From contig JBIKWF010000110.1 of NCBI GenBank assembly GCA_044356455.1, positions 1 to 14,574 on the forward strand: DNA of 14,574 nt, given 5' to 3'. How positions within the stretch are numbered: the stretch's first letter is position 1; each line of letters opens with the position of its first letter. A program made the translations under genes and the position numbers. The notes beneath the pieces are model-generated. The model was not told where the DNA came from, ran no database searches, and saw only the letters and a program-made list of their open reading frames with translations. Positions 1 through 14,485 of this stretch are shown piece by piece. This DNA is from Bdellovibrionota bacterium. Its GTDB lineage: Bacteria; Bdellovibrionota_C; UBA2361; JBGSMV01.

Positions 1-119
1 CGTAAGAACTCCATCGGAGAGCCGGATGCGGGAAAGCCGCACGTCCGGTTCGATGAGCGGATGCAGGGAATCGGCGCGCGCCGCACGGCGCGGACGCTGC
101 GCCCTGAATTCGACTCTAC
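1..119 (+). mobile_element. 3' end (domains V and VI) of a group II intron, continuing upstream of the window
   Basis: GAGCCGGATGCGGGAAAGCCGCACGTCCGGTTC (19-51) has the domain V signature: AGC triad, GAAA-containing loop and AC bulge. It is followed by a domain VI-like stem ending ...CGACTCTAC, with a putative branch A at 113 and terminal AY at 118-119. Confidence 0.9.
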
Positions 120-179
120 CGAGATCCCTTCGGGTTCGTGAGATTACCGCTGGAAATTAGCCGTCCGGGCCAATTTCCA

Positions 180-235
180 ACATCGCCCCCTCTCCGTTCG
201 CCACGGCAGAGTGTCGAACGGAGAGGGGGCGATGT
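180..235. repeat. Long GC-rich inverted repeat (REP-like hairpin or possible terminator for the GNAT gene)
   Basis: ACATCGCCCCCTCTCCGTTCG (180-200) and CGAACGGAGAGGGGGCGATGT (215-235) are a perfect 21-bp inverted repeat. There is no poly-U tail. Confidence 0.75.
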
Positions 236-359: not shown

Positions 360-998
360 TCATGGGGCACTTTCCGAGAATCCAAGCGCTCGGTAGAGCT
401 GGCGGGCGGCATAATTGTCCTCTCTCACGCAAAGGACAATCTCAGCTTTACCGAGCCGCGAAGCCAGCGCCCCGAACTCAACCAAAAGTGCACGCGCTAA
501 GCCCCTTCCACGATAATTGGGATCTGTGAATATATCAGTAACAAAGAGGGAATCTGTGGCCTTTCCCCAGGGCGGACCTGTCACTGCGAACAGTGCTGAA
601 ATAATGCTTCCCCCTTCATTTTCCACAACAAAACAGCCACCAGGAAGAAATGCACCAAAGTCTCCTCGATACAGAGCTCGGAATTCATCTCGACTGCCTG
701 CGTCCGACTGATAGGTTCTATCTGCCTGAAAGCAGCGGAAGTGAAGCGCCGCGACCTGTGCAAAATCCTCTGGTTCAAAGAGCCTTTGGCGAAACCCAGC
801 TGGGATGATCGGCTGAGTCGGGGGCAAGAGCGAAGAGGTCTGTGCAACAAGACATAAACGCTTCCCTGGCGAGACTACCGAACTTAGGCCGTCACACAAA
901 TCTGGGAATCGATACGGCTTTCCACAAATGGTGAGGTCAACAAATTCGAAGGAAGTGTTGGTACTCCTGCCGAAACGCGCATCGTTGCCAAGTGCCAT
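360..998 (-). CDS. GNAT-family N-acetyltransferase
   Basis: 212-aa ORF with acetyl-CoA binding motif A (IFTDPNYRGRGLARALL) and C-terminal VREDNYAARQLYRALGF. Confidence 0.9.
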   Translation of the reverse strand: MALGNDARFGRSTNTSFEFVDLTICGKPYRFPDLCDGLSSVVSPGKRLCLVAQTSSLLPPTQPIIPAGFRQRLFEPEDFAQVAALHFRCFQADRTYQSDAGSRDEFRALYRGDFGAFLPGGCFVVENEGGSIISALFAVTGPPWGKATDSLFVTDIFTDPNYRGRGLARALLVEFGALASRLGKAEIVLCVREDNYAARQLYRALGFSESAP

Positions 999-1016
999 AT
1001 TGAAGTTCCCTTTACG

Positions 1017-1056
1017 TAGCCTCTTTTTCCACGCGCAGTGTGAGAAAAAGAGGCTA
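1017..1056. other. Stem-loop immediately upstream of the GNAT start
   Basis: TAGCCTCTTTTTC (1017-1029) and GAAAAAGAGGCTA (1044-1056) form a perfect 13-bp inverted repeat, extendable by CACGC/GTGTG. Its function is unknown. Confidence 0.55.
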
Positions 1057-1300
1057 GTCTTTGTTCAAGTTATCCCTATTGTTATGCATCGTTGACTCGA
1101 AGATGTTTCACAGGTTTAACGCGCACGGCCCTTTAATAATCAGGTGCTTACAAGGCTAGCAGAATTCTCCATTAAGCCTCTTCGCCCAAGGAATCTTTGG
1201 AATGACGGCATCCCTCATCGATTTCGGTAAGTCAGCAGCCAAGAACCATGTCCATGTAGGCCCCCGTCATCACCCCCACCCCCAAAAAACTATTGACCAT

Positions 1301-1328
1301 TTGTCAGCAGCAAGTTCCGCGCTATCAT
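1301..1328 (+). promoter_or_regulatory. Possible sigma70-type promoter for tldD-tldE
   Basis: TTGTCA (1301-1306), 16-nt spacer, TATCAT (1323-1328), ending 8 nt before the ATG at 1337. Confidence 0.3.
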
Positions 1329-1336
1329 TATAGGCG

Positions 1337-2824
1337 ATGAGTATTCGAGACGGAAAATTTCTAGAGCAAGACCAATTTGTTAAGTTCCTGGCGCTCTGCT
1401 GCGAAGAGGCGCAGAGAGGTGGAGCTACCTTCAGCGACATGAGATTCTCTCGAGTTGCAGAGGAGCGATTTATCTGCCGCGATCGCGAGGTGGAGGAGTC
1501 CGAGATAGGAACTACCCACAGATTTGGCATTCGGGTTTGGATTGATGGTGCCATGGGGTTTGCGTCGGGCGCAGCCTTTGATGAGGAGACCGTCCGAGCT
1601 ATGGCTCGAGAAGCCTGCCTAATAGCCCATGCGCATGCCAAACGAACACGCCTTATTGCTGCCCCACCTGTCCATCCACGGGTCTTACCTTCTTGGGTAA
1701 GCCCTCACGTTATAGACCCATTTTCAGTTAATGTGAGAGAAAAAGAAGAATGGCTTCTTGGCGCGAATGGAACGGCTCTTTCCGCAGGAGCGACGCACTG
1801 TGAATCGCATCTTTGGTTTGTAAAGGATTTTCGACTTTACGGTTCCTCGGACGGAGTTGTTTTATCCCAAGAGGCAATTCGTTCATGGGCGGAGGTCAGA
1901 CCTTCTATCGTTGACTCCCAGGCGGGTAAGCATGCTGAACGCAAGACCCTCATCCCCCCCCAAGCCTGCGGCTACGAACTCCTCGAGAAATTCCCTCCTA
2001 CAGAAATAGAGATTGCGACGGAGCATGCCAAAATGAAACTCAAGTCGCCGACGGTTAGGTCTGGGACCAAGGATCTTGTTATTGCGCCGTCCAATCTGTG
2101 GCTTACCATCCATGAGACCGTGGGCCATTCTACTGAGTCTGATCGGATATTAGGATTCGAAGCCAACTTTGCGGGGACGACATTTGTCAAACCAGTGGAC
2201 ATTGGTCATTTGGTATTTGGGTCTCCCCTAGTCAACTTTACTGCCGATCGTACTTCAACAAACGGCCTCGCAAGCTCCGGATTCGATGACGAAGGGATTC
2301 CGACCTCGAAGTTCCAGCTTGTGAAGGATGGTATTCTTGTCGACGTCCCAACCTCCAGTGATACGGCTCGGATCCTCGGTTTCGAACGTTCGAATGGCTG
2401 TGCGTTCTGCGAAACCGCCGGCAGAATCCCCATTCTTAGAATGCCCAATATATCGCTTGAGCCTGGCGCTCGCGCATGCTCGCTCGAGAACCTGATTTCT
2501 GCCGTAGAGGATGGGCTCCTCGTCATTGGCGATGATTGTTGGAGTATCGATCAGAAACGCCATCAATTTCAGTTTTCTGCGCAAGAGCTATGGGAAATAA
2601 GGAGGGGGCGAATTACTAACCTCGTTAAAGATGGCGCTTATCACGGGAGGACTCGCGAGTTCTGGTCCTCTCTCACTGCGCTTGGGGACGCAAGTACAGT
2701 CGGTTCTGGGGGCACTTTCTTCTGCGGCAAGGGCGAGCCGCTTCAGGCTTCCCCGGTAAGTCATGGTGCCCCCGCCGCGCTTTTTCGCAATGTGGAGGTT
2801 TCTCAGCTGGGAACTGCGCGATGA
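1337..2824 (+). CDS. tldD: TldD-family metalloprotease, catalytic subunit
   Basis: 495 aa with HExxxH motif (TIHETVGHSTESDRILG, nt 2111-2128), FDDEG, RMPN and the C-terminal CGKGEP...VSHG motif typical of TldD. Confidence 0.93.
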   Translation: MSIRDGKFLEQDQFVKFLALCCEEAQRGGATFSDMRFSRVAEERFICRDREVEESEIGTTHRFGIRVWIDGAMGFASGAAFDEETVRAMAREACLIAHAHAKRTRLIAAPPVHPRVLPSWVSPHVIDPFSVNVREKEEWLLGANGTALSAGATHCESHLWFVKDFRLYGSSDGVVLSQEAIRSWAEVRPSIVDSQAGKHAERKTLIPPQACGYELLEKFPPTEIEIATEHAKMKLKSPTVRSGTKDLVIAPSNLWLTIHETVGHSTESDRILGFEANFAGTTFVKPVDIGHLVFGSPLVNFTADRTSTNGLASSGFDDEGIPTSKFQLVKDGILVDVPTSSDTARILGFERSNGCAFCETAGRIPILRMPNISLEPGARACSLENLISAVEDGLLVIGDDCWSIDQKRHQFQFSAQELWEIRRGRITNLVKDGAYHGRTREFWSSLTALGDASTVGSGGTFFCGKGEPLQASPVSHGAPAALFRNVEVSQLGTAR

Positions 2825-4143
2825 CGATCACTTCCCCCACCGCATTGCAAGCCTTAGTTGAAGCTGGAGTCGCCTACGTCCGAGACAGAGACCTGTCTGT
2901 AATCGCCTCGACAACTACGCGTCGGCACATTCGGTTTTCTGAAGAGAACCTCCTTCTTGGGAGTTTAGAAACAGGCTCTTGTCTTCAAGTCAACTCCAGC
3001 AGTCAAGGGAGAACTCATCGAATAGAACTGACTTCCCTCGACCTACTGGCACTCCGCACCGCAATCGATTCGGTGGAATCCAACGCCCCAGCCATTTTTT
3101 CTAATACTCAAGCTTCCCCGCCTGAACTGTATACTTGCCATGCAGTATCGGAAGCGAAACAGCCGGCTTCGCACTCTCGATATCTTGATCTGCTTTCCGA
3201 AAGCGTTGAAAGGCTTGTCGCGGCCGGATTCTCGATATCAGGGCACCTGTGCGATTCAATAGAGACGGAGGCGATCGGAAGCCCGCAGCATGGAGTTGGC
3301 TGCTTTTCCAATCAAGAAGTTACGTTCTCTTGCACTCTCCAATCGCGTGAATCAGGTAGAACGAGCAAATGCCGATTAGCCGCCAGCTCGATCGACGAGC
3401 TCGATATCGCCCCAGCCCTAGCTGCTGCGGCCTTTCGCTGCAAGCTCGGCCCAACCTTGGCTCAAGTCCCATCCGAGGATCTGCCCATCATATTAGAGTC
3501 TGGGGCGGTAGCGGATCTGATGAATGTTATGTTCTGGAACTTCAATTTGCGCTCAGCCCAAGAGGGACGAAGCGGCCTTTCTCTCAGGGAAGGGGGGACG
3601 TTGATCGGAAGCAGAATTACATCTCCTGCCGTTCATTTATTCTCTGATCCGAACGTTTCACACCTGCGATGTAAGCCTTGGGATCCGCAAGGCTTACCCT
3701 TAACCCGAACGGTATGGATCTCAGAGGGTGTTCTTCGAGCTCTCTGCTGTGATCGCATGTGGGCCCGCAAGCAATCGCTCCCCGCAATTGGTGAACCGCG
3801 AAACCTCCTCCTCAAGGGAACAAACAAGCCTTTAGAAGACTTAATTGGAGGCGTGAAACATGGGCTTCTCATTACGAACCTGTGGTACCTGAGGCTTATC
3901 CAATCCGAATCTATGCTATTTACCGGCGTAACACGCGACGGAGTGTTTCTCATTCAAGATGGAAAGGCAGTCCAGCCGGTAAGAGATTTTCGCTTCAACA
4001 TTTCCGCACTTCAGATTCTCTCAAACATTACTGACCTTTCCTGCTCAGCTCGAACCTTCTGCTATGAACCTGGTCTTGAGCGAGTCGACGTTCCCGCCTT
4101 GCTCACGAAAGGGCTTAAGATAGTAGGCGAAGTTTCAACTTAA
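2821..4143 (+). CDS. tldE: TldE/PmbA-family non-catalytic partner subunit
   Basis: 440 aa with ATGA overlap with tldD. It has PWDPQG, GLLITNLWYLR, TGVTRDGVFLIQDG and PVRDFRFN motifs and lacks the HExxxH motif. Confidence 0.88.
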   Translation: MTITSPTALQALVEAGVAYVRDRDLSVIASTTTRRHIRFSEENLLLGSLETGSCLQVNSSSQGRTHRIELTSLDLLALRTAIDSVESNAPAIFSNTQASPPELYTCHAVSEAKQPASHSRYLDLLSESVERLVAAGFSISGHLCDSIETEAIGSPQHGVGCFSNQEVTFSCTLQSRESGRTSKCRLAASSIDELDIAPALAAAAFRCKLGPTLAQVPSEDLPIILESGAVADLMNVMFWNFNLRSAQEGRSGLSLREGGTLIGSRITSPAVHLFSDPNVSHLRCKPWDPQGLPLTRTVWISEGVLRALCCDRMWARKQSLPAIGEPRNLLLKGTNKPLEDLIGGVKHGLLITNLWYLRLIQSESMLFTGVTRDGVFLIQDGKAVQPVRDFRFNISALQILSNITDLSCSARTFCYEPGLERVDVPALLTKGLKIVGEVST

Positions 4144-4473
4144 AAGGAACTCAGCGCCTGGTCACCCCGAAGCTCTTCTCAAACTCCCTCAGCAGCACTA
4201 GACCCCCATCAGAGGACATCTCTCCGCCGCTAAATTTTCCTACCACTTTCTTCGATTTTTCAGCTTGAAACAGGAGAACTTGCTCTCTACACTCTGTCAT
4301 ATCCCCAGCGCCCTTTTCCCATTACAACAGTAAGCGCCGCACGAGAGGCGTTCTATTTGATGTTCGTGAGAGTTCTCTTAAAAGTGAAGTGAATTCAAAA
4401 GAGAACTCCTGACCAGAAATATTTATTGATCTTCAAGAAGTAGTGAAGTAGCTTCTGCGGCGAGAGCCGAACT

Positions 4474-5388
4474 ATGCAGGAACATCTCACTTTAAACTTT
4501 TGGCAACAAGCGGTCGCGTCGCTCGAGCTTTCAGAAACGCTACTCCCCTCTCCAGAGCGGTTCGATTTTACCGAAGAAGAGATCACTGACTACGTCGAAT
4601 GCCTGCGTTCTGAGGCATACTTTATAACTGGTCGTTCGTTACTACCGCGGGCGATGCGAGTGAAAATGCTAGACGCTATCGACAGTGTGATGGCTAAGCA
4701 GTTAGATCCCATTTGGACTCTGTTGTACGATGAGTTCTGGATTACCGCTGCTCAATTCAGCACTCTCATCGAGAGAATACTCGGACCTGACTATAAATAC
4801 GTTACTGGCAACTACATCTTCGTTATTCCTAATGAAGATAGTGCTAGCGGATGGGGGCCTCACCGGGACGTGATGCATAAAAAGTCATTAGCCGCTGATG
4901 GTCTTCCGGAAGTTATGACGTTCTGGACGGCACTGACAGACGCCACGCCACTCAATAGCTGTTTATATTGCGTACCTGGGTCGAGAGACAAGAACTACCC
5001 TAATAACGTGCAAGAGCGTTCGGTCGAGAATGTTAAAGACATTGTGTGCATGGCTGTGTCAGCAGGGCAGACCATCGGATTGAATCATTCGCTTCTTCAC
5101 TGGGGAAGCCGTAGTAGTAAGCGAGGAGCCGAACGACGGGTTAGTTTCGTTTTTGATGTTCAGCGAGGAGACGTTCCAAAGTATCAAGAAGTAACTTTAG
5201 ATCCTCGGAAGCCGCTTTCATTCGAGGAAAGAGCTGGGTACTTGGGACATGTAGTCCCATGGTTACATAAATACGGGGTTAAGTTTGCATACAAAGATCT
5301 CGCCATAGCGGGGGACTTTGTCCGCGCGTACGGTGAAGCTATAAATTTGCGGACTGACTATCTTACGGACTATCCCGATATACCGTGA
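4474..5388 (+). CDS. Phytanoyl-CoA dioxygenase (PhyH)-family Fe(II)/2-oxoglutarate oxygenase
   Basis: 304 aa with HxD (GWGPHRD), FWTALTDATPLNSCLYCVPGS, distal His (LLHWGS) and a downstream Arg (RRVS). Confidence 0.85.
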   Translation: MQEHLTLNFWQQAVASLELSETLLPSPERFDFTEEEITDYVECLRSEAYFITGRSLLPRAMRVKMLDAIDSVMAKQLDPIWTLLYDEFWITAAQFSTLIERILGPDYKYVTGNYIFVIPNEDSASGWGPHRDVMHKKSLAADGLPEVMTFWTALTDATPLNSCLYCVPGSRDKNYPNNVQERSVENVKDIVCMAVSAGQTIGLNHSLLHWGSRSSKRGAERRVSFVFDVQRGDVPKYQEVTLDPRKPLSFEERAGYLGHVVPWLHKYGVKFAYKDLAIAGDFVRAYGEAINLRTDYLTDYPDIP

Positions 5389-5392
5389 CCTT

Positions 5393-5428
5393 GCCTTCGT
5401 GTGTCATGTGGCCTTCGTGTGTCATGTG
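5393..5428. repeat. Perfect 18-bp tandem duplication
   Basis: GCCTTCGTGTGTCATGTG at 5393-5410 and 5411-5428. Confidence 0.95.
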
Positions 5429-5670
5429 GTTCTGAATGAGCTTTTTGGGTGGTCAGGTAGCGGCGTTACTTCCCCATCAATCATCATCCCGGAGTATTCG
5501 ACACCATCAGGTACGCTAGGCCTATCGTCACCGATGAGGTGCCTGGGCAGATACTATCCCAAGAACACTCCGGCTTCGGTACCTGGGTAGGCGAGCCGTT
5601 TGAAGAGGCAGACCGTACTAGGTTCGTCGCTCGCTATATTGAACGCGGACCGCACGCGTGGGCGTCGTAA
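5429..5670 (+). pseudogene. Possible degraded C-terminus (maturase domain X) of a group II intron reverse transcriptase
   Basis: Broken frames give LNELFGW and RRYF...GVFDTIRY...HAWAS*, resembling the LN...GW..YF...F..I..Y pattern of domain X. The stop at 5668-5670 lies just before domain V, where intron ORFs normally end. Confidence 0.45.
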
Positions 5671-5783
5671 GAACTCCATCGGAGAGCCGGATGCGGGAAA
5701 GTCGCACGTCCGGTTCGATGAGCAGATGCAGGGAATCGGCACGCGCCGCACGGCTCGGAGCTGAGCCCTGACTTCGACTCTAC
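5666..5783 (+). mobile_element. Second group II intron 3' end (domains V-VI) of a 5'-truncated or deleted copy
   Basis: 5666-5798 aligns with 1-134 with 7 substitutions and 1 indel by manual count. Domain V is at 5684-5716 and the copy ends CGACTCTAC at 5783. Confidence 0.9.
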
Positions 5784-6268
5784 CGGGATCCCTTCGGGCG
5801 AACTTTTTTTCTAATAACAGGCTTACGTGAGACTTGCAGATTCTTCTTTGACTGGCACGCTTTGACCAAACCTGCCAATTTTTTGCACTGCAGCTTCGAG
5901 CCCTTCCAGCGCAGAGGCACTCCTTTGCGGCGAGCTCTTCGAGCATTTTTAAAGGGGTCGTTATAGAACCGCTCGGGAAGGAAGCCGCACCACCGAAAAA
6001 TCTGTTCCTCGATCAAACACGCCTGATACTCTCGCAAAATCGACCAGCGATTCTTGAGGTCAAGATTATATCTTTCACGCTCTCTAGGCGTTGCCACTAC
6101 CCAATGGCAAAATTCATGAATGAGTCCCTCAGTGTCTTTTCTCTTAACAAGAATGCAATCAGGCCTCTGCTCTGACTCCTTTCCAAGTCTGACCTTGAGC
6201 CCAGTTGCCCTCTCAACTTCCTTTTTTACCGCCTCAAAGGCCCCGGAAACATCAACTCCCTTGGTCAT
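5780..6268 (-). CDS. Small HExxH-motif protein, loosely EpmC/YfcM-like putative metalloenzyme
   Basis: 162 aa with LIHEFCHWVVATPRER and a downstream Glu (REYQAC). It has a 4-nt overlap with the methyltransferase stop, and its own stop lies within the intron end. Confidence 0.6.
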   Translation of the reverse strand: MTKGVDVSGAFEAVKKEVERATGLKVRLGKESEQRPDCILVKRKDTEGLIHEFCHWVVATPRERERYNLDLKNRWSILREYQACLIEEQIFRWCGFLPERFYNDPFKNARRARRKGVPLRWKGSKLQCKKLAGLVKACQSKKNLQVSRKPVIRKKVRPKGSR

Positions 6269-7203
6269 GAAACCCTCCTGAGCAGAAACCAGAAATTGCC
6301 CCTTGCTTCCCGGTCGACGGATGCCCTCTCAAATCTATCGTCAAACGTTGCCTCTAACTTCCAAGGACACCCATCGCGGAAAAGGGACAAAAGTGTCGCA
6401 ATTGGGAAATATCCTTGACGCTGATATTCTCTCGTCACCTCAACTTGTCGCTCGACATCTTCAATTACTACCTCCTCGATTATTTGACTTGAGAGGTGAT
6501 CAAATGAGTGCAGTAACCAAGTTGCTCGATGCGGTCTCCCTTCCCAGGCAAAATCCCAAGAGCTCCTGTACGGTGTGGCTGGATCAGGCCTTAGATCGAG
6601 ATGGAATAAGTAGGCGCCCCCGGGAATCACAGAGTTTCCAAGACTACCAAGATGGGCGCGAAGCTGATGCATGCTCGTAAGATAGCGAATGGAGTTCATG
6701 CACGCGAATGCATAGGAATAGGAATTCGGGGAACAGAAGTACTCAACTCTTGCGCGAAAAATTCGGCACCCATTTGAGGAAGGCAACTTGGACTGTACCC
6801 AGCGGGTGGAGCTCAGGCTCTCATCTATTCCATCAACACACCATCCACGCTGTAGCACACAGGGGAGAAGAATCCTTCCATTCCCACAGCCGACGTCTAG
6901 CCCTCTACCTTTAAGGAGACTGCCAAACTGCTCTTCAAAAAAGTTCAACTCGGGTTCTGGCGACCAATTGAAAAGCGCCTCCATCAGCTCTGGGTGTTCA
7001 AAGATTTTCCTTGCACCCATGGTGCCATACCCTTGATTCTCAAGCTCTTTCGCATTGTCAAGGTGTAGTGAACCATCCCTAAGAAGGGATATCAAAACCG
7101 TTCTTTCTCCCTGACGCAGCACCAGGCAGGTGGGGGTGTGTGCACTGCGGACACGGGGATCAAGCTCAAAAACTGATCCATCATTTACTAGTATTGATTC
7201 CAC
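6265..7203 (-). CDS. Class I SAM-dependent methyltransferase with N-terminal extension
   Basis: 312 aa with motif I (LDVGCGNGR), VDGIDES, NSIRYL and PGGAYLF. It overlaps the arginase gene end. Confidence 0.9.
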   Translation of the reverse strand: MESILVNDGSVFELDPRVRSAHTPTCLVLRQGERTVLISLLRDGSLHLDNAKELENQGYGTMGARKIFEHPELMEALFNWSPEPELNFFEEQFGSLLKGRGLDVGCGNGRILLPCVLQRGWCVDGIDESLSSTRWVQSKLPSSNGCRIFRARVEYFCSPNSYSYAFACMNSIRYLTSMHQLRAHLGSLGNSVIPGGAYLFHLDLRPDPATPYRSSWDFAWEGRPHRATWLLHSFDHLSSQIIEEVVIEDVERQVEVTREYQRQGYFPIATLLSLFRDGCPWKLEATFDDRFERASVDREARGNFWFLLRRVS

Positions 7204-7903
7204 TGCCTACCATTCCTTTGCTCAACACACGCAACACTGAGCCTACAAACTGAAACTCCCTACTTTCCTCCGCCGCTCCATGCCATTCCACAATATCAGC
7301 TCCAACAATGGGGCCCCGAATTCTAGCAAGAGACTCAGTAAATGACTCGAAGGAGGTCGCGCAATCAGGAGCGCACTCGGCAGGATACGAAACCGAGGGA
7401 ACAGTAGAAGGAGGAAAATAGTCGAGATCTAGGGAAATAAAGGTAGGTCCAATGATATCCTTCTCAAGTAAACAAGGTCGAGGCTCCTTGACATCATGAC
7501 GTACTCCCAAAGAGATAACCCGAGATTGAAGAATACGGGAACAATGAAAAAAAACAGTGTAGTTCGTCAGCTGCAAATCTTCATAGCAATCATGGTGGGC
7601 ATCAAAATGAAGAATGGTAAGGGGGCCATAATGAGAGGTGAGCGCCTCGACTGAAAAGAATGTAAGGCTATGATCTCCTCCCAGACACAATGGAACGTCT
7701 CCCCTTGACGCAACTTCCGCCATGTCCCAGCCAAGCAACTTTGGCAAAAAGGGACCCATTTCTCGGGGATATTCTATGCAAGATTCTTTTTCACAGAGTT
7801 TCCGCCAGGCGCGAGCCGAACCAGCGCTCCCCGGTTTTTTTGAGTAGCCATCAAATGGAGAGATAATAGGAACGACTTTTTTCATTTCAAAATCTTTCTT
7901 CAC
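7181..7903 (-). CDS. Arginase/agmatinase (ureohydrolase)-family protein
   Basis: 240 aa with all hallmark metal-binding motifs: GGDHS, FDAHHD, SLDLD and GADIVE. Confidence 0.9.
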   Translation of the reverse strand: MKKDFEMKKVVPIISPFDGYSKKPGSAGSARAWRKLCEKESCIEYPREMGPFLPKLLGWDMAEVASRGDVPLCLGGDHSLTFFSVEALTSHYGPLTILHFDAHHDCYEDLQLTNYTVFFHCSRILQSRVISLGVRHDVKEPRPCLLEKDIIGPTFISLDLDYFPPSTVPSVSYPAECAPDCATSFESFTESLARIRGPIVGADIVEWHGAAEESREFQFVGSVLRVLSKGMVGSGINTSK

Positions 7904-7912
7904 TGTCGTTCT

Positions 7913-8563
7913 TTAAGAGTGCATTTCGACTATTTTACGTCGAAAGAGCTCCTCCAGGAATGTAGCTCGGTGTTCTGTGTTTATCCCGGCCGGTAAGAGT
8001 GCACTCACTCGAAGGGCGCCTGCCCGTGCGAGCCTCCCCAACGCTCTCTGGGCCACTTGGTTTGAAATGAATAGGGAGGAACCGCAACATACGCCTAACG
8101 TCCCGTCAATCACCCCTACGGCGCACAATGGAGACAGCACCAACAAGGGGTCATCATCAAGGTTTAAGACCGAAAGGACCTTAATCTGAAAAATGAGATC
8201 TGAATTGGGCGGCACCTCCTCAGGGACCCCACGTGATCCATACCCGAGCTCAGATGGCACACGAACAAGCGCAAAGTCTCCTTGCCTCAGTAAAGTCAGG
8301 GCTTTGCTAAATCCTAGAATGAGAGATCTGGAAGGCACGGAAGTGACCATCTTCACCGGCCGAGCGCCCGTCCCATCGAGTGAAGCGCCCCCCATTAACC
8401 ACGCGCGATAAGAAAGCTCAACAATTGCATTTTCTCCCACCCTTTTCCCATGTCCATGCGCCCGCCACGCGCACACGAGACCACTCGGATCCGTCACCAC
8501 ATGCCGCCCCTCTGAGAGCATCTGAGCAAACAAGGCAGGGCCAACTACCCATCCATACTTCAT
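7913..8563 (-). CDS. FKBP-type peptidyl-prolyl cis-trans isomerase with extra C-terminal domain
   Basis: Residues ~22-132 match the FKBP pattern (VELSY...LDGT...LILGF...VPSELGYGSRG...VPPNSDLIFQIKVL). An additional ~80 aa follows at the C-terminus, and the start overlaps the upstream gene by 4 nt. Confidence 0.88.
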   Translation of the reverse strand: MKYGWVVGPALFAQMLSEGRHVVTDPSGLVCAWRAHGHGKRVGENAIVELSYRAWLMGGASLDGTGARPVKMVTSVPSRSLILGFSKALTLLRQGDFALVRVPSELGYGSRGVPEEVPPNSDLIFQIKVLSVLNLDDDPLLVLSPLCAVGVIDGTLGVCCGSSLFISNQVAQRALGRLARAGALRVSALLPAGINTEHRATFLEELFRRKIVEMHS

Positions 8564-10824
8564 ATTTGCGGTAGCCTCCGCTCAGATGCAAAGGAGCTGA
8601 TACCAGGCTCAAAGAACTCGCTTCGTGATTTCACTGAGGATCCATCCGAGCGAATCCAAAGAGAAGGAGCGCGATCTTCTATGGGGCTGAGATAGGCTCC
8701 TCGGTAGAGAGTGCCCTTTTCTACAAGATGCAATACGGGCAGGTCGCTTTGCTGAGTCGAGAGAAGCTCTGCATTTCTGTAATAGGAGTCGCTGCCAAAA
8801 ACAAGACAAGCGCCCTCCGCCCCAAGCATCCTCGTTTCCGGAGTAATAGATCTCCAATAAGCGAGTCTGTCTTCTATTTTTCCGGGCATGGCATGACTGC
8901 CTACAATCAGAGGCAAAGCTCTCGATGGAAAAAGACTCTCGGAGCTAAGAGCAGCCTGCGGCTCCGGCGGCTGCCCCCCATCGAGGAGGCCCTCATCAAG
9001 TAAGCCCTCATCAAGTAAGCCCTCATCAAGTAAGCCCTCATCAAGTAAGATTGCCCGACTAAGATTGGCAACTGCCGCAGTGGACACTCGGGGCTTCCTG
9101 AATGGCTCAGCGGAGAATGCGGGCTTATCAAGAGGCATGCGAGAAACCGCGCGACTAAATATTGCAAACGGCAACTCTTGCTCCACCCATCGAGAGGGTG
9201 AGAGGCCCACTACGATTTCCAATTTGGTAAAGGGCTCCCAATTCTTAAATTGCTGCCTGATTATTGCAGCAAGTTCAGAAAAATAGTCGGCTTCCGGGAA
9301 GCGCAGAATTAGGGAAATGGTGCAGGTAAAGGAAGCATTCTTTAACGCATTGCCGAGCGTCTGGACCCACGCAGCGCCGGGTAGGTCCTGGAGAACCGTG
9401 ATCATTGAGTATCCGGTTGAGTCGGAACTACAAGAGCGACGCTCGCTTTGGTAGATCCGTCGCATGTTTCTAATTTCTGGCCACGGAAGAGCAAAGGAAG
9501 CGCGAGCATTAAGACCCCAAGACTCCTTTTGCTTAATATGGCAATCACGCATTTGGGCCAGAAATAGCTCAGAGATGCGGCGTCTCTCAACTCGACGCTT
9601 CTCACGGTTCGTCATGTGCGGAATTTCAATTAAAGAACCCGGGGAGAGGTATTTGGGCCAAGAGCCTCTCTGCACCACGGGCTTGAGTCGAATCCCACTG
9701 TGGGCAGGATCGGTTGTATCGGGAGACCCGAAATAAAGCTGGTTCCAATTGCCAGTGTTGTTTCCATTGAAAAACAGCCCCTTACTTCGAATAAAGTCAA
9801 AGGTGGATAAAATTGAGGGCTCCGAGTCCCCCGCGTTTCCCATCATATGAAGAAATTCGACTTGAATTCCCTCTTTGAAAATAGCATCCACTGTGGCAGA
9901 GAATCCGTCCAGAGTCTGGCCTTTCCCCATGCGCGCCAAGGCTTGGTTATCGGCGGACTCAAGTCCCATCGCAATTTTTGAAACCCCTGCCAACTTCATT
10001 GCGCTGAGCATTTGAGCATCAAGAAGATCTGCGCGTGTTTCACACCAGAAATCCAGGCTGAGACCAAGCTTTGCGATCGCGTCGAAGAGCTCCAAGCAGC
10101 GCTTGCGGTTGACGCTGAATAATGGGTCTGCGATCCAGAAGCTGCGCACGCCTTTACCATAGAGCCAACGCACCTCTTCGATAACGCGAGAGATTGAGTG
10201 GTATCTAACTCGTCTCTGACTCAAGAAAGGTGTTACGCAGAATCTACAGCTAAAGGAACATCCTCGAGAAGTTAACAATAGTGCCCGCTCATGGGGCGAC
10301 ACGGCAATAATTCCCTCAAGGTAGGGCGAAGGATACGAATCGAGATCGTCCGGTAGCGTTGGCCATGGCCGCTCCGCTATGGTCCCAAGCGAGTTTCTAA
10401 AGGCGATTCCTGGAACTGTGTCGACCGGGTCACCCCTATCAAGCCGCAGGAGCAACTCGCTGGTGACGATTTCCCCCTCCCCACGACAAAGATAATCAAT
10501 GTTAGGCATCTCAAGCAGCGCGCTTCCCGGCATTGCGGGCACCTGCGGTCCTCCCAATAATATGTGAGAGCCGAGCAGCTCCTTTGCAAGTTTCGCGAGG
10601 CAGAGGACCTGGTGCATCGACTCATTGTAAGCGGCAATTCCCAAAAGAAGCGGCCGCTCTCGATTAAGAATTTCGAGAAATCCTGAAAGTGAGGGCCTGT
10701 CACGTGCAAAATCAATGATGGTTGCTCTCGCTCCTAGTTTGGCAACGTAGGCGGCGATATACCCAAGCGCGATATCGTTTCGGGTATGGGAGCAGGGATT
10801 TACAAGAAGGACAGATGACTTCAT
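8560..10824 (-). CDS. Cobalamin-dependent (class B) radical SAM enzyme, probable C-methyltransferase, with long C-terminal extension
   Basis: 754 aa with an N-terminal B12-binding domain (LLVNP...LGYIAAY...LLGGPQ...RGEGE), TSRGCSFSCRFC (CxxxCxxC), ETRAD and GLESAD. Confidence 0.92.
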   Translation of the reverse strand: MKSSVLLVNPCSHTRNDIALGYIAAYVAKLGARATIIDFARDRPSLSGFLEILNRERPLLLGIAAYNESMHQVLCLAKLAKELLGSHILLGGPQVPAMPGSALLEMPNIDYLCRGEGEIVTSELLLRLDRGDPVDTVPGIAFRNSLGTIAERPWPTLPDDLDSYPSPYLEGIIAVSPHERALLLTSRGCSFSCRFCVTPFLSQRRVRYHSISRVIEEVRWLYGKGVRSFWIADPLFSVNRKRCLELFDAIAKLGLSLDFWCETRADLLDAQMLSAMKLAGVSKIAMGLESADNQALARMGKGQTLDGFSATVDAIFKEGIQVEFLHMMGNAGDSEPSILSTFDFIRSKGLFFNGNNTGNWNQLYFGSPDTTDPAHSGIRLKPVVQRGSWPKYLSPGSLIEIPHMTNREKRRVERRRISELFLAQMRDCHIKQKESWGLNARASFALPWPEIRNMRRIYQSERRSCSSDSTGYSMITVLQDLPGAAWVQTLGNALKNASFTCTISLILRFPEADYFSELAAIIRQQFKNWEPFTKLEIVVGLSPSRWVEQELPFAIFSRAVSRMPLDKPAFSAEPFRKPRVSTAAVANLSRAILLDEGLLDEGLLDEGLLDEGLLDGGQPPEPQAALSSESLFPSRALPLIVGSHAMPGKIEDRLAYWRSITPETRMLGAEGACLVFGSDSYYRNAELLSTQQSDLPVLHLVEKGTLYRGAYLSPIEDRAPSLWIRSDGSSVKSRSEFFEPGISSFASERRLPQI
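8974..9048. repeat. In-frame 15-bp tandem repeat (VNTR) encoding (LLDEG)4-LLDGG
   Basis: GCCCTCATCAAGTAA occurs 4 times exactly at 8989-9048, with one degenerate unit at 8974-8988. Confidence 0.95.
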
Positions 10825-10833
10825 TGGGGCAGT

Positions 10834-10862
10834 ATCATCGGGTAGCTCTCGGTCTCAGTCAA
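10834..10862 (-). promoter_or_regulatory. Possible sigma70-type promoter for the minus-strand operon
   Basis: Minus strand TTGACT (10862-10857), 17-nt spacer, GATGAT (10839-10834), ending 9 nt before the ATG at 10824. Confidence 0.3.
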
Positions 10863-11042
10863 TTTCTCACTGAGAAAGACCGAGTCAGCTAAGTACTTAG
10901 CGAATGAAGGTTCGATTTTTAGTAATTACCTGAAAGCAAACGATGTTTGAGTCGGTTGCCCTGAGATTGAAGATATATGTTGACGCAAGACGCAGCCTTT
11001 CATACCCTTGTTTCTGTATATTTTTTTGGAGGGATACCTACC

Positions 11043-11222
11043 ATGACCCCGCGTTTACCTGGATCTGATATTGATTCTATTTCCGAGAGTGACTCTGCTG
11101 AGGAACTCGCATCGAATGACGTCCGAGAGGAAGAAGCTCCACGTATTATTGAGCTTAAGAAATCCGTAGAAGGGATGAAGGTTTCGGAAGAATCCCGCTG
11201 TCGTCCGCATCATTTGCTGTAG
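11043..11222 (+). CDS. Small acidic peptide (59 aa), candidate RiPP precursor
   Basis: GGAGGG Shine-Dalgarno at 11028-11033, 9 nt before ATG 11043. Sequence MTPRLPGSDIDSISESDSAEELASNDVREEEAPRIIELKKSVEGMKVSEESRCRPHHLL. It lies upstream of the rSAM/SPASM gene on the same strand. Confidence 0.7.
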   Translation: MTPRLPGSDIDSISESDSAEELASNDVREEEAPRIIELKKSVEGMKVSEESRCRPHHLL

Positions 11223-11380
11223 TTGAGTGTATTTGCTGCTTGTGAGCGAGTTCGATTTTTAATTTCTTCGTGATTGTTTTTTTGTTTACCGTTATCGAAC
11301 TAGAACCTCATTTGCGGGCGCTGCATCAATGATAGTGGCCTAGTTCAGCTGTACAAAATTGAGATTCAGGAGACTTTATT

Positions 11381-11764
11381 ATGAGAAAAACGCCTAAGTA
11401 TCTGAAAAGATTCTCTGCGATTGCTGCTGCGATGTCAGCTTCGCTTGTTGCGAGTTCTGCGATGGCAGCACCGACAGTGGCTGCTGAGGGCGCTGTGGTG
11501 ATGTCGATTCAGCAGGTAATGGAGGCGATAAACAATGGCTGTCAAGTTTCATTAGTTGGGCCTGCAACCGCGTCAGGGGAGCTTCTTGCTCCATATAATC
11601 GCGAAAAAGGTGCAGCTGACGCGAAAGTTGCCGCCAAGTGGGATGGAGCCGCTGCCCCCGCGGGTCCAAGTTCTGGCCCATCGCCATTCTATCTTGCTAA
11701 AGTATCGAACCAGAGTGGAGGACCGGCCGCATCGATTGCCGTTGCCGACTGCGATAGGGCTTAG
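11381..11764 (+). CDS. Small Ala/Gly-rich secreted protein of unknown function
   Basis: AGGAG Shine-Dalgarno at 11368-11372. Basic N-terminus, hydrophobic stretch and AMA/A signal peptidase I-type site after residue 29. The mature part has two Cys. Confidence 0.8.
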   Translation: MRKTPKYLKRFSAIAAAMSASLVASSAMAAPTVAAEGAVVMSIQQVMEAINNGCQVSLVGPATASGELLAPYNREKGAADAKVAAKWDGAAAPAGPSSGPSPFYLAKVSNQSGGPAASIAVADCDRA

Positions 11765-11791
11765 ATACTGACGCTGATCTAATTGTCTAAG

Positions 11792-11834
11792 GTGCAGGGA
11801 TGCAATGAGTAATTGCTTCCCTGCACTCAGTTTT
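11792..11834 (+). terminator. Stem-loop after the secreted-protein gene (intrinsic terminator or mRNA-stabilising hairpin)
   Basis: GTGCAGGGA-T-GCAAT / ATTGC-T-TCCCTGCAC stem (11792-11826) followed by TCAGTTTT. Confidence 0.6.
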
Positions 11835-11882
11835 CCTTACGCCTCCTCTGACATCAACATTGACTCCCGATGAGGAGAGCAC

Positions 11883-13256
11883 GTGACTTTGAGTGAAGCC
11901 ATCCCGGCAGATACTAACGCGTACCGCGTAGTCTGGAATTCGAGGCTAGGAGAGGTGGTCATCCTCGCTGCATCGCCCTTTGGCTCGGACGGAATTCTCA
12001 ACAACTCGGCGGGCAAAATACTAGATCGGCTCTCAACCGAGCCTGAAAATTGCGCTCAAATTATCAAGCAATTTCCGGAATTTTTCTCGACGCTTCAGAC
12101 TCATCATCTCATTGGGCCTTTGGGCGATATGAGAGCGTCGTTTCGCGCGTTCCGTGGGAAAGAGCAACTCAAATCGATACAAATAGAGCTGACAAGAGTT
12201 TGCAATCTTCGTTGCTCTTATTGTTATTCTGAGAGTGGCCCCTGGCAGAAAGGATCCGGCTTGCCCCTCGAACAGGTGTATAGAGTCCTCAAGGAGGCAG
12301 AGGAGCTGGGTTGCATTACCGTTGATTTTACGGGTGGGGAGCCCCTTGCATATCGCTGGTGGAAAGAGGTTCTTACAGAGGCACGCCGCCTCGGCTTGGT
12401 GACTACGCTGCACACCAACGGGACACTTCTCACTGAGCCAACAGTAGAGTTTCTCGCAAAACTCCCGCTGCGCCATCTTCAGGTCTCGCTTGATTCTCAC
12501 CTTCCGGAAGTCCACGATCGAATTCGCGGCATGCCCGGAGCTTGGGAAAAGGCTGTTGCCGGCATCAAAATCGCTCAGAGACTTGGGATTTTTGTGCGTG
12601 TTGCAATTGTTGCTCACAAGGAGAACCGAGATCACTTCCGGGAGGCCGTTAGTTTTTTCAACGAATCGTTAGGTGTCTCCACGAAGATGGACCGTATTAT
12701 TAAGACTGGCGGAGAGAAGACTGCCAATTTAGGCATTTCTACCAAGGAGTACTACGAACTAATTGCTCCGCTCACCGCTAAGGGGGCCGTGGATGCTCGA
12801 GTTTGCGAATCTTCAGTTCGAACACACCGAGAGCGTATAGAACCTGCGTGTGGCGTAGCACACAGCTTCCTTTACATCACGGCAGAGGGAGAAATTGCTC
12901 TTTGTCCAACAATGACATCTCGTGACGACCCAAGGTTTGGATCTCCTCGCCTCGCCGATGTTGGAATTCGTGAGGCCTGGGAAAGAAGTCCCTACATCGA
13001 GTCCTATCGGTTCTTAAACTGTCGCAATGTCGACTCCTGTCCTACTGGGGCCGCATGTGGAGGCGGATGTCGCTCTAATGCCTATTTTGAAACAGGAGAG
13101 CTCGATAGCCCCGATCAGTTGCATTGCAATCTTAACAAGAATGGTGAGTTGCAATTTAAGGATTTTCTGGGAGAGTATGCCAAGGCGCAATCTGAATTGG
13201 TATCGATAAAGCCAAGATCCATCAAGCCAAGATCCGTCGCAGCAAGGACGTCTTAA
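11883..13256 (+). CDS. Radical SAM/SPASM-domain peptide maturase
   Basis: 457 aa with GTG start and GAGGAG Shine-Dalgarno. It has CNLRCSYC, FTGGEPL, TNGTLL, QVSLDS and SPASM cysteines (CGVA...GEIALCP...CRNVDSC...CGGGCR...HC), plus a ~90-aa N-terminal extension. Confidence 0.93.
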   Translation: MTLSEAIPADTNAYRVVWNSRLGEVVILAASPFGSDGILNNSAGKILDRLSTEPENCAQIIKQFPEFFSTLQTHHLIGPLGDMRASFRAFRGKEQLKSIQIELTRVCNLRCSYCYSESGPWQKGSGLPLEQVYRVLKEAEELGCITVDFTGGEPLAYRWWKEVLTEARRLGLVTTLHTNGTLLTEPTVEFLAKLPLRHLQVSLDSHLPEVHDRIRGMPGAWEKAVAGIKIAQRLGIFVRVAIVAHKENRDHFREAVSFFNESLGVSTKMDRIIKTGGEKTANLGISTKEYYELIAPLTAKGAVDARVCESSVRTHRERIEPACGVAHSFLYITAEGEIALCPTMTSRDDPRFGSPRLADVGIREAWERSPYIESYRFLNCRNVDSCPTGAACGGGCRSNAYFETGELDSPDQLHCNLNKNGELQFKDFLGEYAKAQSELVSIKPRSIKPRSVAARTS

Positions 13257-13295
13257 GTCCAGGACATTATTCACACTCATTCGCAATATTAGAAC

Positions 13296-14144
13296 TTGGA
13301 TAGACCAATGAGTCTCCCCACAAGATATCGACTTATTAACCCACCACACGCCGGGTTGGAATGGCAAGTTCAGCATCAGTTATCGCCTGTAGAGCGGCGC
13401 GAGCTTTCCGAAAATGGTTTTATTGTTCGGACCGATCTCTTTGATTCGCAAACAATTCTCAAAATGCGCGCCGCGGTAGACGATCTCGCCGCGATGGAAG
13501 CCTCGAGAGGGATCGCCGAGTTCACCCGATGGGGTCAATACATCCCATTCCTTATTGAGAAGCACGAAGTCTTTTTGCAGCTCGTGTATCATAAAAAACT
13601 TATCGGGATTGCTCGTGAAGCGCTTGGGCCTCAAGTTCAATTTGACCTTGTGGATGCTCGCATCACCAAATCAGCCAAAGAAGTTGTCGAGTGGCACATC
13701 CATAACCAGTGCGTAGTAGAACCTGCTCCACTATTCCCCTGTTACCCGCACTCTATTCACGTCTTAGTTTACCTAGATGATATTAGCGAAGACAACGGCG
13801 CACTTTGTGTGATGCCTGGCTCGCACCGCAATCCTTCTAACCCGTGCCCCGTTGGGGACAGGGCGCACGAAGATCTGCCGGGACAGGTTGTGATTTCATG
13901 TCCGGCTGGAACTTCTGTTGTGGTCCATGCCCACCTTTGGCATCGCACTATTTCTCCTCGTCAAAGAGAAATAGACCGTAGGATGCTTATCGTTGGCTTC
14001 CTACCGGCATGTGTAAAGAGTACCACTCATCAGTCTGATGAATTTTATCGCCGAGGGTCTCCCTCCGAAAGATTGACCTCGCAATTGCGGGTGGGTGACG
14101 ACCCCGAGATTAGGGAGCTCCTGGGGGAGTACTTTTGGCCCTAA
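13296..14144 (+). CDS. PhyH-family Fe(II)/2-oxoglutarate oxygenase-like protein (start may be ATG 13308)
   Basis: ENGFIV, VYLDDISEDNGALCVMPGSH, PAGTSVVVHAHLWH and RRMLI match PhyH. The first metal motif reads WHIH rather than WHxD. Confidence 0.85.
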   Translation: MDRPMSLPTRYRLINPPHAGLEWQVQHQLSPVERRELSENGFIVRTDLFDSQTILKMRAAVDDLAAMEASRGIAEFTRWGQYIPFLIEKHEVFLQLVYHKKLIGIAREALGPQVQFDLVDARITKSAKEVVEWHIHNQCVVEPAPLFPCYPHSIHVLVYLDDISEDNGALCVMPGSHRNPSNPCPVGDRAHEDLPGQVVISCPAGTSVVVHAHLWHRTISPRQREIDRRMLIVGFLPACVKSTTHQSDEFYRRGSPSERLTSQLRVGDDPEIRELLGEYFWP

Positions 14145-14384: not shown

Positions 14385-14485
14385 CTAGGAGTCTGTCCCG
14401 TAAAAATTCTGACCACTACAATTTGTGGTGGCAACGGGACAGCCCACCTAGGAGTCTGTCCCGTAGGACGGGCCAGACTCCATAG
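14385..14485. mobile_element. Two adjacent miniature inverted-repeat elements (IS-end remnants or MITE-like) bounded by CTAG
   Basis: CTAG-GAGTCTGTCCCGT...ACGGGACAGCCCAC-CTAG-GAGTCTGTCCCGT-AGG-ACGGGCCAGACTC-CATAG. CTAGGAGTCTGTCCCGTA is directly repeated at 14385-14402 and 14448-14465. Confidence 0.5.

Follow-up and report, generated by a model that had tools for sequence, protein, structure and literature searches.

The enteropeptins, which one source gives as (S)MKG-O-CPP(S) peptides (PMC12395415) and whose chemistry is treated elsewhere (PMC12703449, PMC12445099), are encoded by kgr clusters, in which an acidic precursor with a single Cys (KgrA, core K-G-R-C-P-P) is accompanied by a radical S-adenosylmethionine (rSAM) enzyme with a SPASM domain (KgrC), an arginase of family PF00491 (KgrD), an Fe-S methyltransferase (KgrB) and an MFS exporter. 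The described cases come from Enterococcus cecorum and Streptococcus thermophilus, both Bacillota, and Enterococcus and Streptococcus are the only genera named for enteropeptins in the available parts of two further sources (PMC13361665, PMC9811515), while one compendium omitted KgrA for want of single-Cys examples (PMC10288494). Here, a window of 14,574 nt, the entire contig C103 (JBIKWF010000110.1) of a 4.7-Mb Bdellovibrionota genome (GCA_044356455.1), is compared with these systems. It probably carries an enteropeptin-like cassette for a peptide that is made on the ribosome and then modified post-translationally (RiPP), in which a SPASM enzyme, an arginase and a class I methyltransferase would act on the Arg52-Cys53 pair of a 59-residue peptide.

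Two other kinds of pathway share parts of this inventory. Biphenomycin clusters (bpm/bip, pbs; PMC12257519, PMC12707348) contain an arginase (which disappears together with the Arg), a B12-dependent rSAM enzyme (B12-rSAM), hydroxylases including an alpha-ketoglutarate one of the HExxH type and, in PMC12257519, a JmjC hydroxylase, and a TldD-type protease; the B12-rSAM and the TldD-type protease both have counterparts in the window, matched by family. In contrast, the window has no MNIO (DUF692) among its 15 scanned open reading frames (ORFs), its arginase belongs to PF00491 and not PF12640, its SPASM enzyme is central and its peptide lacks the aromatic F-x-F; membership was rejected because there is no MNIO and because the peptide contains no Phe, Tyr or Trp at all. 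OspR-type pathways (landornamide, phaeornamide) turn Arg into ornithine within a ribosomally made peptide, as is predicted here, followed in phaeornamide by hydroxylation and GNAT acylation (PMC10373908), but the window encodes neither a lanthionine synthetase nor an epimerase, and membership was discarded since its arginase matched only PF00491 and not PF12640 with the EEH(N/H)EAF motif (motif per PMC12703449). An earlier sequence-only reading of this DNA had recognised no characterised RiPP class in it. That claim is not supported, since by SPASM homology, arginase homology and the Arg-Cys motif the core is a cassette of the kgr type, made up of the following elements, with a related module elsewhere in the genome:

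11043..11222, plus strand: candidate precursor peptide, 59 amino acids, with an acidic leader bearing a PRIIEL motif and a single Cys, in Arg52-Cys53 (11196-11201), the pair predicted to be modified, followed by R-P-H
11883..13256, plus strand: rSAM/SPASM maturase, KgrC-like, predicted thiomorpholine synthase
7181..7903, minus strand: PF00491 ureohydrolase, KgrD-like, predicted peptide arginase
6265..7203, minus strand: class I SAM-dependent methyltransferase that is predicted to N-methylate ornithine
Contig C204, positions 9096-11919 of locus L003: paralogous module in the order SPASM, peptide, PhyH2, with a Met-Cys core

The E. cecorum kgr locus used for comparison was one of 30 pattern matches and was confirmed by the KGR precursor model NF050045 (80.4 bits, cut-off 50); its Cys-rich 274-residue ORF was taken as KgrB by position. 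A kgr cluster near-identical to it also lies at 3418-6634 of L106, a contig labelled Candidatus Ligilactobacillus excrementigallinarum. The SPASM enzyme of the window is 28.7% identical to the E. cecorum kgr rSAM over 331 residues (E 1e-39) and its arginase 24.6% identical to the kgr one (E 1e-9), the metal ligands H78, D101, H103, D105, D159 and D161 being invariant in eight aligned sequences that include the latter. A profile of the SPASM family gives KgrC 225 bits and background SPASM proteins no more than 154; in a FastTree phylogeny of 77 rows, KgrC is sister to the 31-row family (Shimodaira-Hasegawa, SH, support 89), within which the window enzyme and its C204 paralog are sisters (98). 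The unusual C-x5-C-x5-C-x3-C spacing is found in 28 of the 31 family rows and in both kgr rows, and CPT[ML] in 29 of 31 and again both; neither occurs in any of the 44 background rows. The precursors also resemble each other, both being acidic, single-Cys peptides with Arg-Cys in register, 13 residues past IIEL to the Cys in the window and 14 past ILEI in KgrA. Unlike the kgr clusters, however, the window has the core R-C-R-P-H, a class I SAM enzyme in the place of the Fe-S methyltransferase and no MFS exporter, and it adds PhyH, B12-rSAM, FKBP, HExxH, TldD/E and GNAT genes. Judged from sequence, the cassette likely works like kgr without being a member of the KGR family.

The second line of evidence is co-occurrence. 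A search with the SPASM protein returned 87 relatives at E<=1e-40, and an alignment of 60 sequences was used for locus scans, which yielded 29 orthologous loci. GTDB contributed 16 of them (18 were returned) and metagenomes 13 (80 were returned, with 34 of 64 parts covered). A scan of GTDB contigs with the SPASM enzyme as a single protein gave no matches; the alignment-based one did find loci. Those with a name belong to Actinomycetota, Pseudomonadota, Myxococcota and Acidobacteriota. Queried with the proteins of the window, the 29 loci contain the arginase 26 times, the methyltransferase 22 times, PhyH1 five times and GNAT once, and B12-rSAM, FKBP, HExxH, TldD, TldE, PhyH2 and a 127-residue ORF not once. 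Profiles, which were built partly from the same loci and were run without the 1.2-kb locus L035, find the arginase in 26 of 28 loci and the methyltransferase in 24, against none and two weak matches, respectively, in 67 background loci; since only 11 of the 28 loci reach 15 kb, absences in the short ones mean little. The sequence-only reading had proposed such a neighbourhood comparison, and its outcome bears out the arginase and the methyltransferase, together with a small R-C peptide curated in 20 loci; a co-conservation of FKBP, TldD/E, B12-rSAM and HExxH is not supported, these being found in 0 of the 29 orthologous loci, and a more sensitive search recovered none either. Within its own phylum the SPASM family is present in this genome only (1 of 124), which fits horizontal gain; no SPASM orthologue was found among viral contigs (best E 2e-12) or plasmids.

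The substrate motif travels with these enzymes. A mechanical test for small acidic ORFs containing RC[PR] no more than 3 kb away gave a hit in 21 of 28 family loci, against 2 of 58 from the background; its filter missed two true-looking peptides. Arg-Cys is present in all 20 hand-curated family peptides, and the next residue is Pro in 19 of them and Ala in the other. C-R-P-H was considered as a family motif and rejected, as the first scan of related loci gave only noise and what is shared is R-C. Some loci carry two or three R-C-P cores or tandem precursor genes (L006 5471-5689, L007 13787-13984, L015 903-1076, L032 1479-1992).

Further support comes from the host genome itself, whose contig C204 contains a 14.3-kb paralogous locus with a SPASM paralog (58% identity), a PhyH2 paralog (52%) and, between them, another 59-residue peptide. 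Both peptides share EEEAPRIIELKKS and CRPH, and over these 17 residues 8 codons differ, all silently, as the codon lists reveal when compared at an offset of one codon. In the C204 peptide the Cys stands in the same register, with Met replacing the Arg before it, and neither arginase nor methyltransferase was found in the 14.3 kb. The window peptide is very likely a real precursor because the genome holds a diverged copy of it next to paralogs of the window's SPASM and PhyH genes; with the co-occurrence and the Arg-Cys motif, this sustains the earlier proposal of a RiPP locus whose small acidic ORF, preceded by GGAGGG as ribosome-binding site (RBS), likely encodes the peptide on which the SPASM enzyme, the arginase and the methyltransferase act. 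The C204 module also adjoins genes for a DUF6445 protein and an APH-like phosphotransferase, and a further intron end. Two contigs from RNA libraries (11035-11911 and 11031-12002) match the window with no mismatches, start just upstream of the precursor start codon and run across the peptide and the 127-residue ORF into the beginning of the SPASM gene. The two runs behind them, of the same year and habitat, have depth in 5 and 4, respectively, of the 30 bins, and window parts without cover there are not read as silent; as contigs reveal neither strand nor level, these two are no more than a weak hint of a real precursor.

Several observations weigh against this interpretation and keep it at the level of the probable. 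The window peptide has no NCBIfam match at E<=0.01, thus missing NF050045, and places Arg after its Cys where 19 of the 20 family peptides have Pro. KgrC, whose composition is unusual, occupies a long branch, and an SH support of 89 is not strong. The methyltransferase shows no similarity to the 274-residue kgr ORF (E 5.8), and the site of methylation is therefore deduced from co-occurrence only. The loci amount to about 20 independent cases, five actinobacterial ones being near-identical and two pairs close; three of the 21 hits of the mechanical test look spurious (L009, L016, L020). Of the 28 loci, 8 yielded no peptide, 6 of these near contig edges. L028 (1985-5475) encodes an R-C-P peptide without arginase or methyltransferase, which means that this Arg does not always imply ornithine. 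That locus has instead a 419-residue ORF without Pfam match (ATP-grasp-like by eye) and an MFS-like gene. Finally, no exporter family was matched among the 15 ORFs scanned in the window.

By analogy to the enteropeptins, from which the thiomorpholine ring, the order of the steps and the site of methylation are all taken, the SPASM enzyme would join the Cys53 sulfur to the alpha-carbon of Arg52 in a thiomorpholine ring (-2.016 Da), the arginase would turn Arg52 into ornithine with loss of urea (-42.022 Da), and the class I methyltransferase would then N-methylate the ornithine (+14.016 Da); the predicted sum, -30.02 Da, equals what PMC12445099 gives for enteropeptin D. The C204 locus would yield a Met-Cys ring without the ornithine step. 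Full-text literature searches, which covered few subscription papers and many sources only in part, returned no enteropeptin-like cluster with a class I methyltransferase and no H-x-H PhyH enzyme in a RiPP pathway, although the tables of the primary enteropeptin paper or of the rSAM compendium may already list these loci.

The enzymes most plausibly added to this core are two oxygenases:

4474..5388, plus strand: PhyH1 oxygenase, H-x-D...H motif, accessory family member
13308..14144, plus strand (start 13296 or 13308): PhyH2 oxygenase, H-x-H...H metal motif

The participation of this pair, as originally proposed, has support: PhyH1 has orthologues (31-55% identity) in five of the 29 SPASM loci, and PhyH2 accompanies the peptide in the paralogous C204 locus; it is found in 0 of the 29 orthologous ones. 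For each of the two it is somewhat favoured that it adds oxygen to the core; PhyH2 would oxygenate the R-P-H tail, and PhyH1 the ornithine or the proline. H-x-D is the usual motif in the PhyH superfamily (PMC2938197). H-x-H is found in both PhyH2 and its C204 paralog, and a search of 1.84 billion representatives recovers it in 34 of the 36 best PhyH2 matches (two of the 36 from this genome itself), against 6 of the 74 lowest-ranking ones listed; the distal His is mostly kept, and so is an Arg downstream. Among the loci examined, PhyH2 occurs only beside the two C-R-P-H peptides, which makes the C-R-P-H region its likely site of action. A PhyH2 scan of GTDB contigs gave 74 candidate stretches, 0 of them confirmed, and profiles of PhyH2 and of the B12-rSAM matched 0 of the five genomes of related loci. 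A 2-oxoglutarate oxygenase of some kind is present in at least 10 of 28 loci, where selected ORFs were scanned; in the closest related locus (L024, 1178-6299) two PhyH genes flank the precursor, neither orthologous to the window pair. AlphaFold models are of low confidence for PhyH2 (pLDDT 39.7) as well as for the HExxH protein (pLDDT 41.3).

The remaining genes of the window are the following:

8560..10824, minus strand: B12-dependent rSAM enzyme, 754 amino acids, CxxxCxxC intact
7913..8563, minus strand: FKBP-type peptidyl-prolyl isomerase domain with a C-terminal extension of about 80 residues
5780..6268, minus strand: HExxH protein, 162 amino acids, last gene of the minus-strand operon (motif read from the sequence)
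1337..2824, plus strand: TldD, HExxxH intact, candidate leader protease
2821..4143, plus strand: TldE, pairs with TldD
360..998, minus strand: GNAT acetyltransferase, weakly linked
11381..11764, plus strand: orphan ORF of 127 amino acids, with an RBS, a signal-peptide-like N-terminus (by eye) and two Cys, between the precursor and the SPASM gene

As a description of gene content, the sequence-only reading was sound: the twelve genes it named are real, with all ORFs open and the families as stated (by Pfam and NCBIfam scans, and by motif only for the HExxH ORF), the overlaps of 4, 23 and 4 nt and the single 9-nt gap in the minus-strand operon fit translational coupling, and no YcaO, Lan, lasso, nonribosomal peptide synthetase, polyketide synthase or exporter family was matched among the 15 ORFs scanned. 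It overlooked the 127-residue ORF (11381-11764) and also the mobile-element remnants at 5518-5783 and 17-119. The former, for which no family or look-alike was found, shares the RNA-library contigs with the precursor; it was rejected as a precursor itself on account of its lack of an R-C motif, its lack of homologues and its absence from the C204 locus.

The B12-rSAM has eight close full-length relatives. A contig scan reached a distant clade only, mostly Desulfobacterota and other deltaproteobacteria, whose sole Myxococcota match is a short form adjoining a TPR-like ORF, and 80 loci of distant relatives contain none of the other window genes. An FKBP domain is fused to 4 of 16 scanned distant relatives (P0106, P0108, P0109, P0110), three of them also with TPR repeats, and the tail of the window FKBP resembles that of the close B12-rSAM relative P0092 (5 of 2000 shuffles reach the score; pairwise E 0.44). 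The FKBP is thus probably linked to the B12-rSAM, and from the fusions and the likeness of the tails the two may be a pair of their own. They resemble a separately acquired pair, and their action on the 59-residue peptide is doubtful, as is that of the HExxH protein and the GNAT. A 15-nt tandem repeat encoding LLDEG units (8975-9049, minus strand) lies in the C-terminal part of the B12-rSAM and is absent from its relatives. A RiPP recognition element suspected by eye in the FKBP tail or the N-terminus of the methyltransferase found no support in Pfam or profile comparisons. The HExxH ORF has no Pfam or NCBIfam match, and its structural likeness to EpmC in the Atlas (TM 0.60) is below the bar of the tool. 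TldD/E may trim the leader, a role that is conceivable but on balance not favoured. A second pair is encoded on C117 (40% and 29% identity), a search of 20 relatives at E<=1e-40 gave no TldD match, and TldD/E usually work from outside RiPP clusters (PMC10885120). Of the 29 loci, one has a homologue of the GNAT, which lies some 7 kb away from the SPASM gene.

The region is divided by remnants of mobile elements:

5518..5783, plus strand: scar, a 45-codon transposase fragment (5518-5652) followed by the 3' end of a group II intron (5682-5778, RF00029)
17..119, plus strand: 3' end of a multi-copy group II intron, where the contig starts

An intact ORF of C178 matches the transposase fragment, which we take to be IS91-like, with 78% identity across 45 residues. 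The scar sets GNAT, TldD/E and PhyH1 apart from the rest, and the stop codon of the HExxH gene falls inside the intron end. An independent lake metagenome covers 30 of 30 window bins with listed pieces that match exactly, none of which crosses the scar, so the evidence that the two blocks are joined is the assembly of the window itself. The multi-copy intron (window 1-123 and 5661-5783; ends of C37, C55, C90, C150, C198 and C204) likely caused the assembly break at the contig start; because several of its copies precede the same dispersed repeat of about 110 nt (window 120-235), it is suggested that the intron targets this repeat. Two dispersed palindromic repeat families, at 120-235 and 14385-14461, have dozens of copies in the genome. 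Both contig ends fall within multi-copy repeats, and the cluster could therefore continue past the window.

How much of this inventory belongs to a single pathway is the question on which the rival explanations differ. In the widest version, all ten enzymes would act on one peptide, with the B12-rSAM C-methylating or cross-linking it (FKBP as helper), the HExxH protein hydroxylating, the GNAT acylating and TldD/E releasing it. The overlapping operon shared by B12-rSAM, FKBP and HExxH with the arginase and the methyltransferase speaks for it, as does the fact that none of the SPASM, B12-rSAM and TldD enzymes was found in the relatives searched, and the biphenomycin precedent, together with the arginase, ornithine hydroxylase and GNAT of the phaeornamide route, keeps it alive. 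Its chance is nonetheless small, given that B12-rSAM, FKBP, HExxH and TldD/E are missing from every one of the orthologous loci and the 80 loci of more distant B12-rSAM relatives hold no other window gene, that the transposase and intron scar separates one block from the other, and that the genome has a further TldD/E pair. At the opposite extreme, the enzymes could serve a pathway for small molecules, or lie in a silent island, with the peptide not being their substrate. The families PF00491, PhyH, GNAT and class I methyltransferase do mostly act on small molecules, and the region contains mobile-element scars; the co-occurrence of peptide, SPASM enzyme, arginase and methyltransferase across phyla, the intactness of all ORFs and, as a weak hint, the RNA-library contigs over the precursor make this the least credible of the explanations.

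A subtler alternative leaves the peptide in place and shifts the chemistry: in both SPASM paralogs the site would be C-R-P-H, where the Cys would either be linked to one of Arg54, Pro55 and His56 or undergo oxidation by the H-x-H oxygenase, and the arginase would target Arg54. That the two paralogous peptides conserve C-R-P-H, and not R-C-P, through silent changes, and that PhyH2 keeps, within the loci examined, to these two peptides, speaks for it. Yet the C204 peptide retains the Arg after the Cys with no arginase nearby, having lost the one before it, and both SPASM enzymes nest within the R-C-P family with their signatures kept, which renders this alternative improbable. The enteropeptin-like cassette acting on Arg52-Cys53 is the reading we prefer. 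It may be extended to a cross-phylum family of thiomorpholine sactipeptides with an N-methyltransferase of a different fold, of which this genome would hold the most elaborated member, a duplicated module with new chemistry of the three-His PhyH oxygenase at C-R-P-H and heavy decoration involving a recruited B12-rSAM/FKBP pair, HExxH and TldD/E; in that full form it is a rather unlikely proposal.

For the family, the comparison provides about 20 candidate precursors with their enzymes in at least four phyla beyond Bacillota, and it suggests that the methyltransferase was replaced by a non-homologous one. The H-x-H PhyH subfamily gains a candidate substrate, in a chemistry that is directly testable, and the genome itself holds a natural control pair: Arg-Cys with an arginase and Met-Cys without one.

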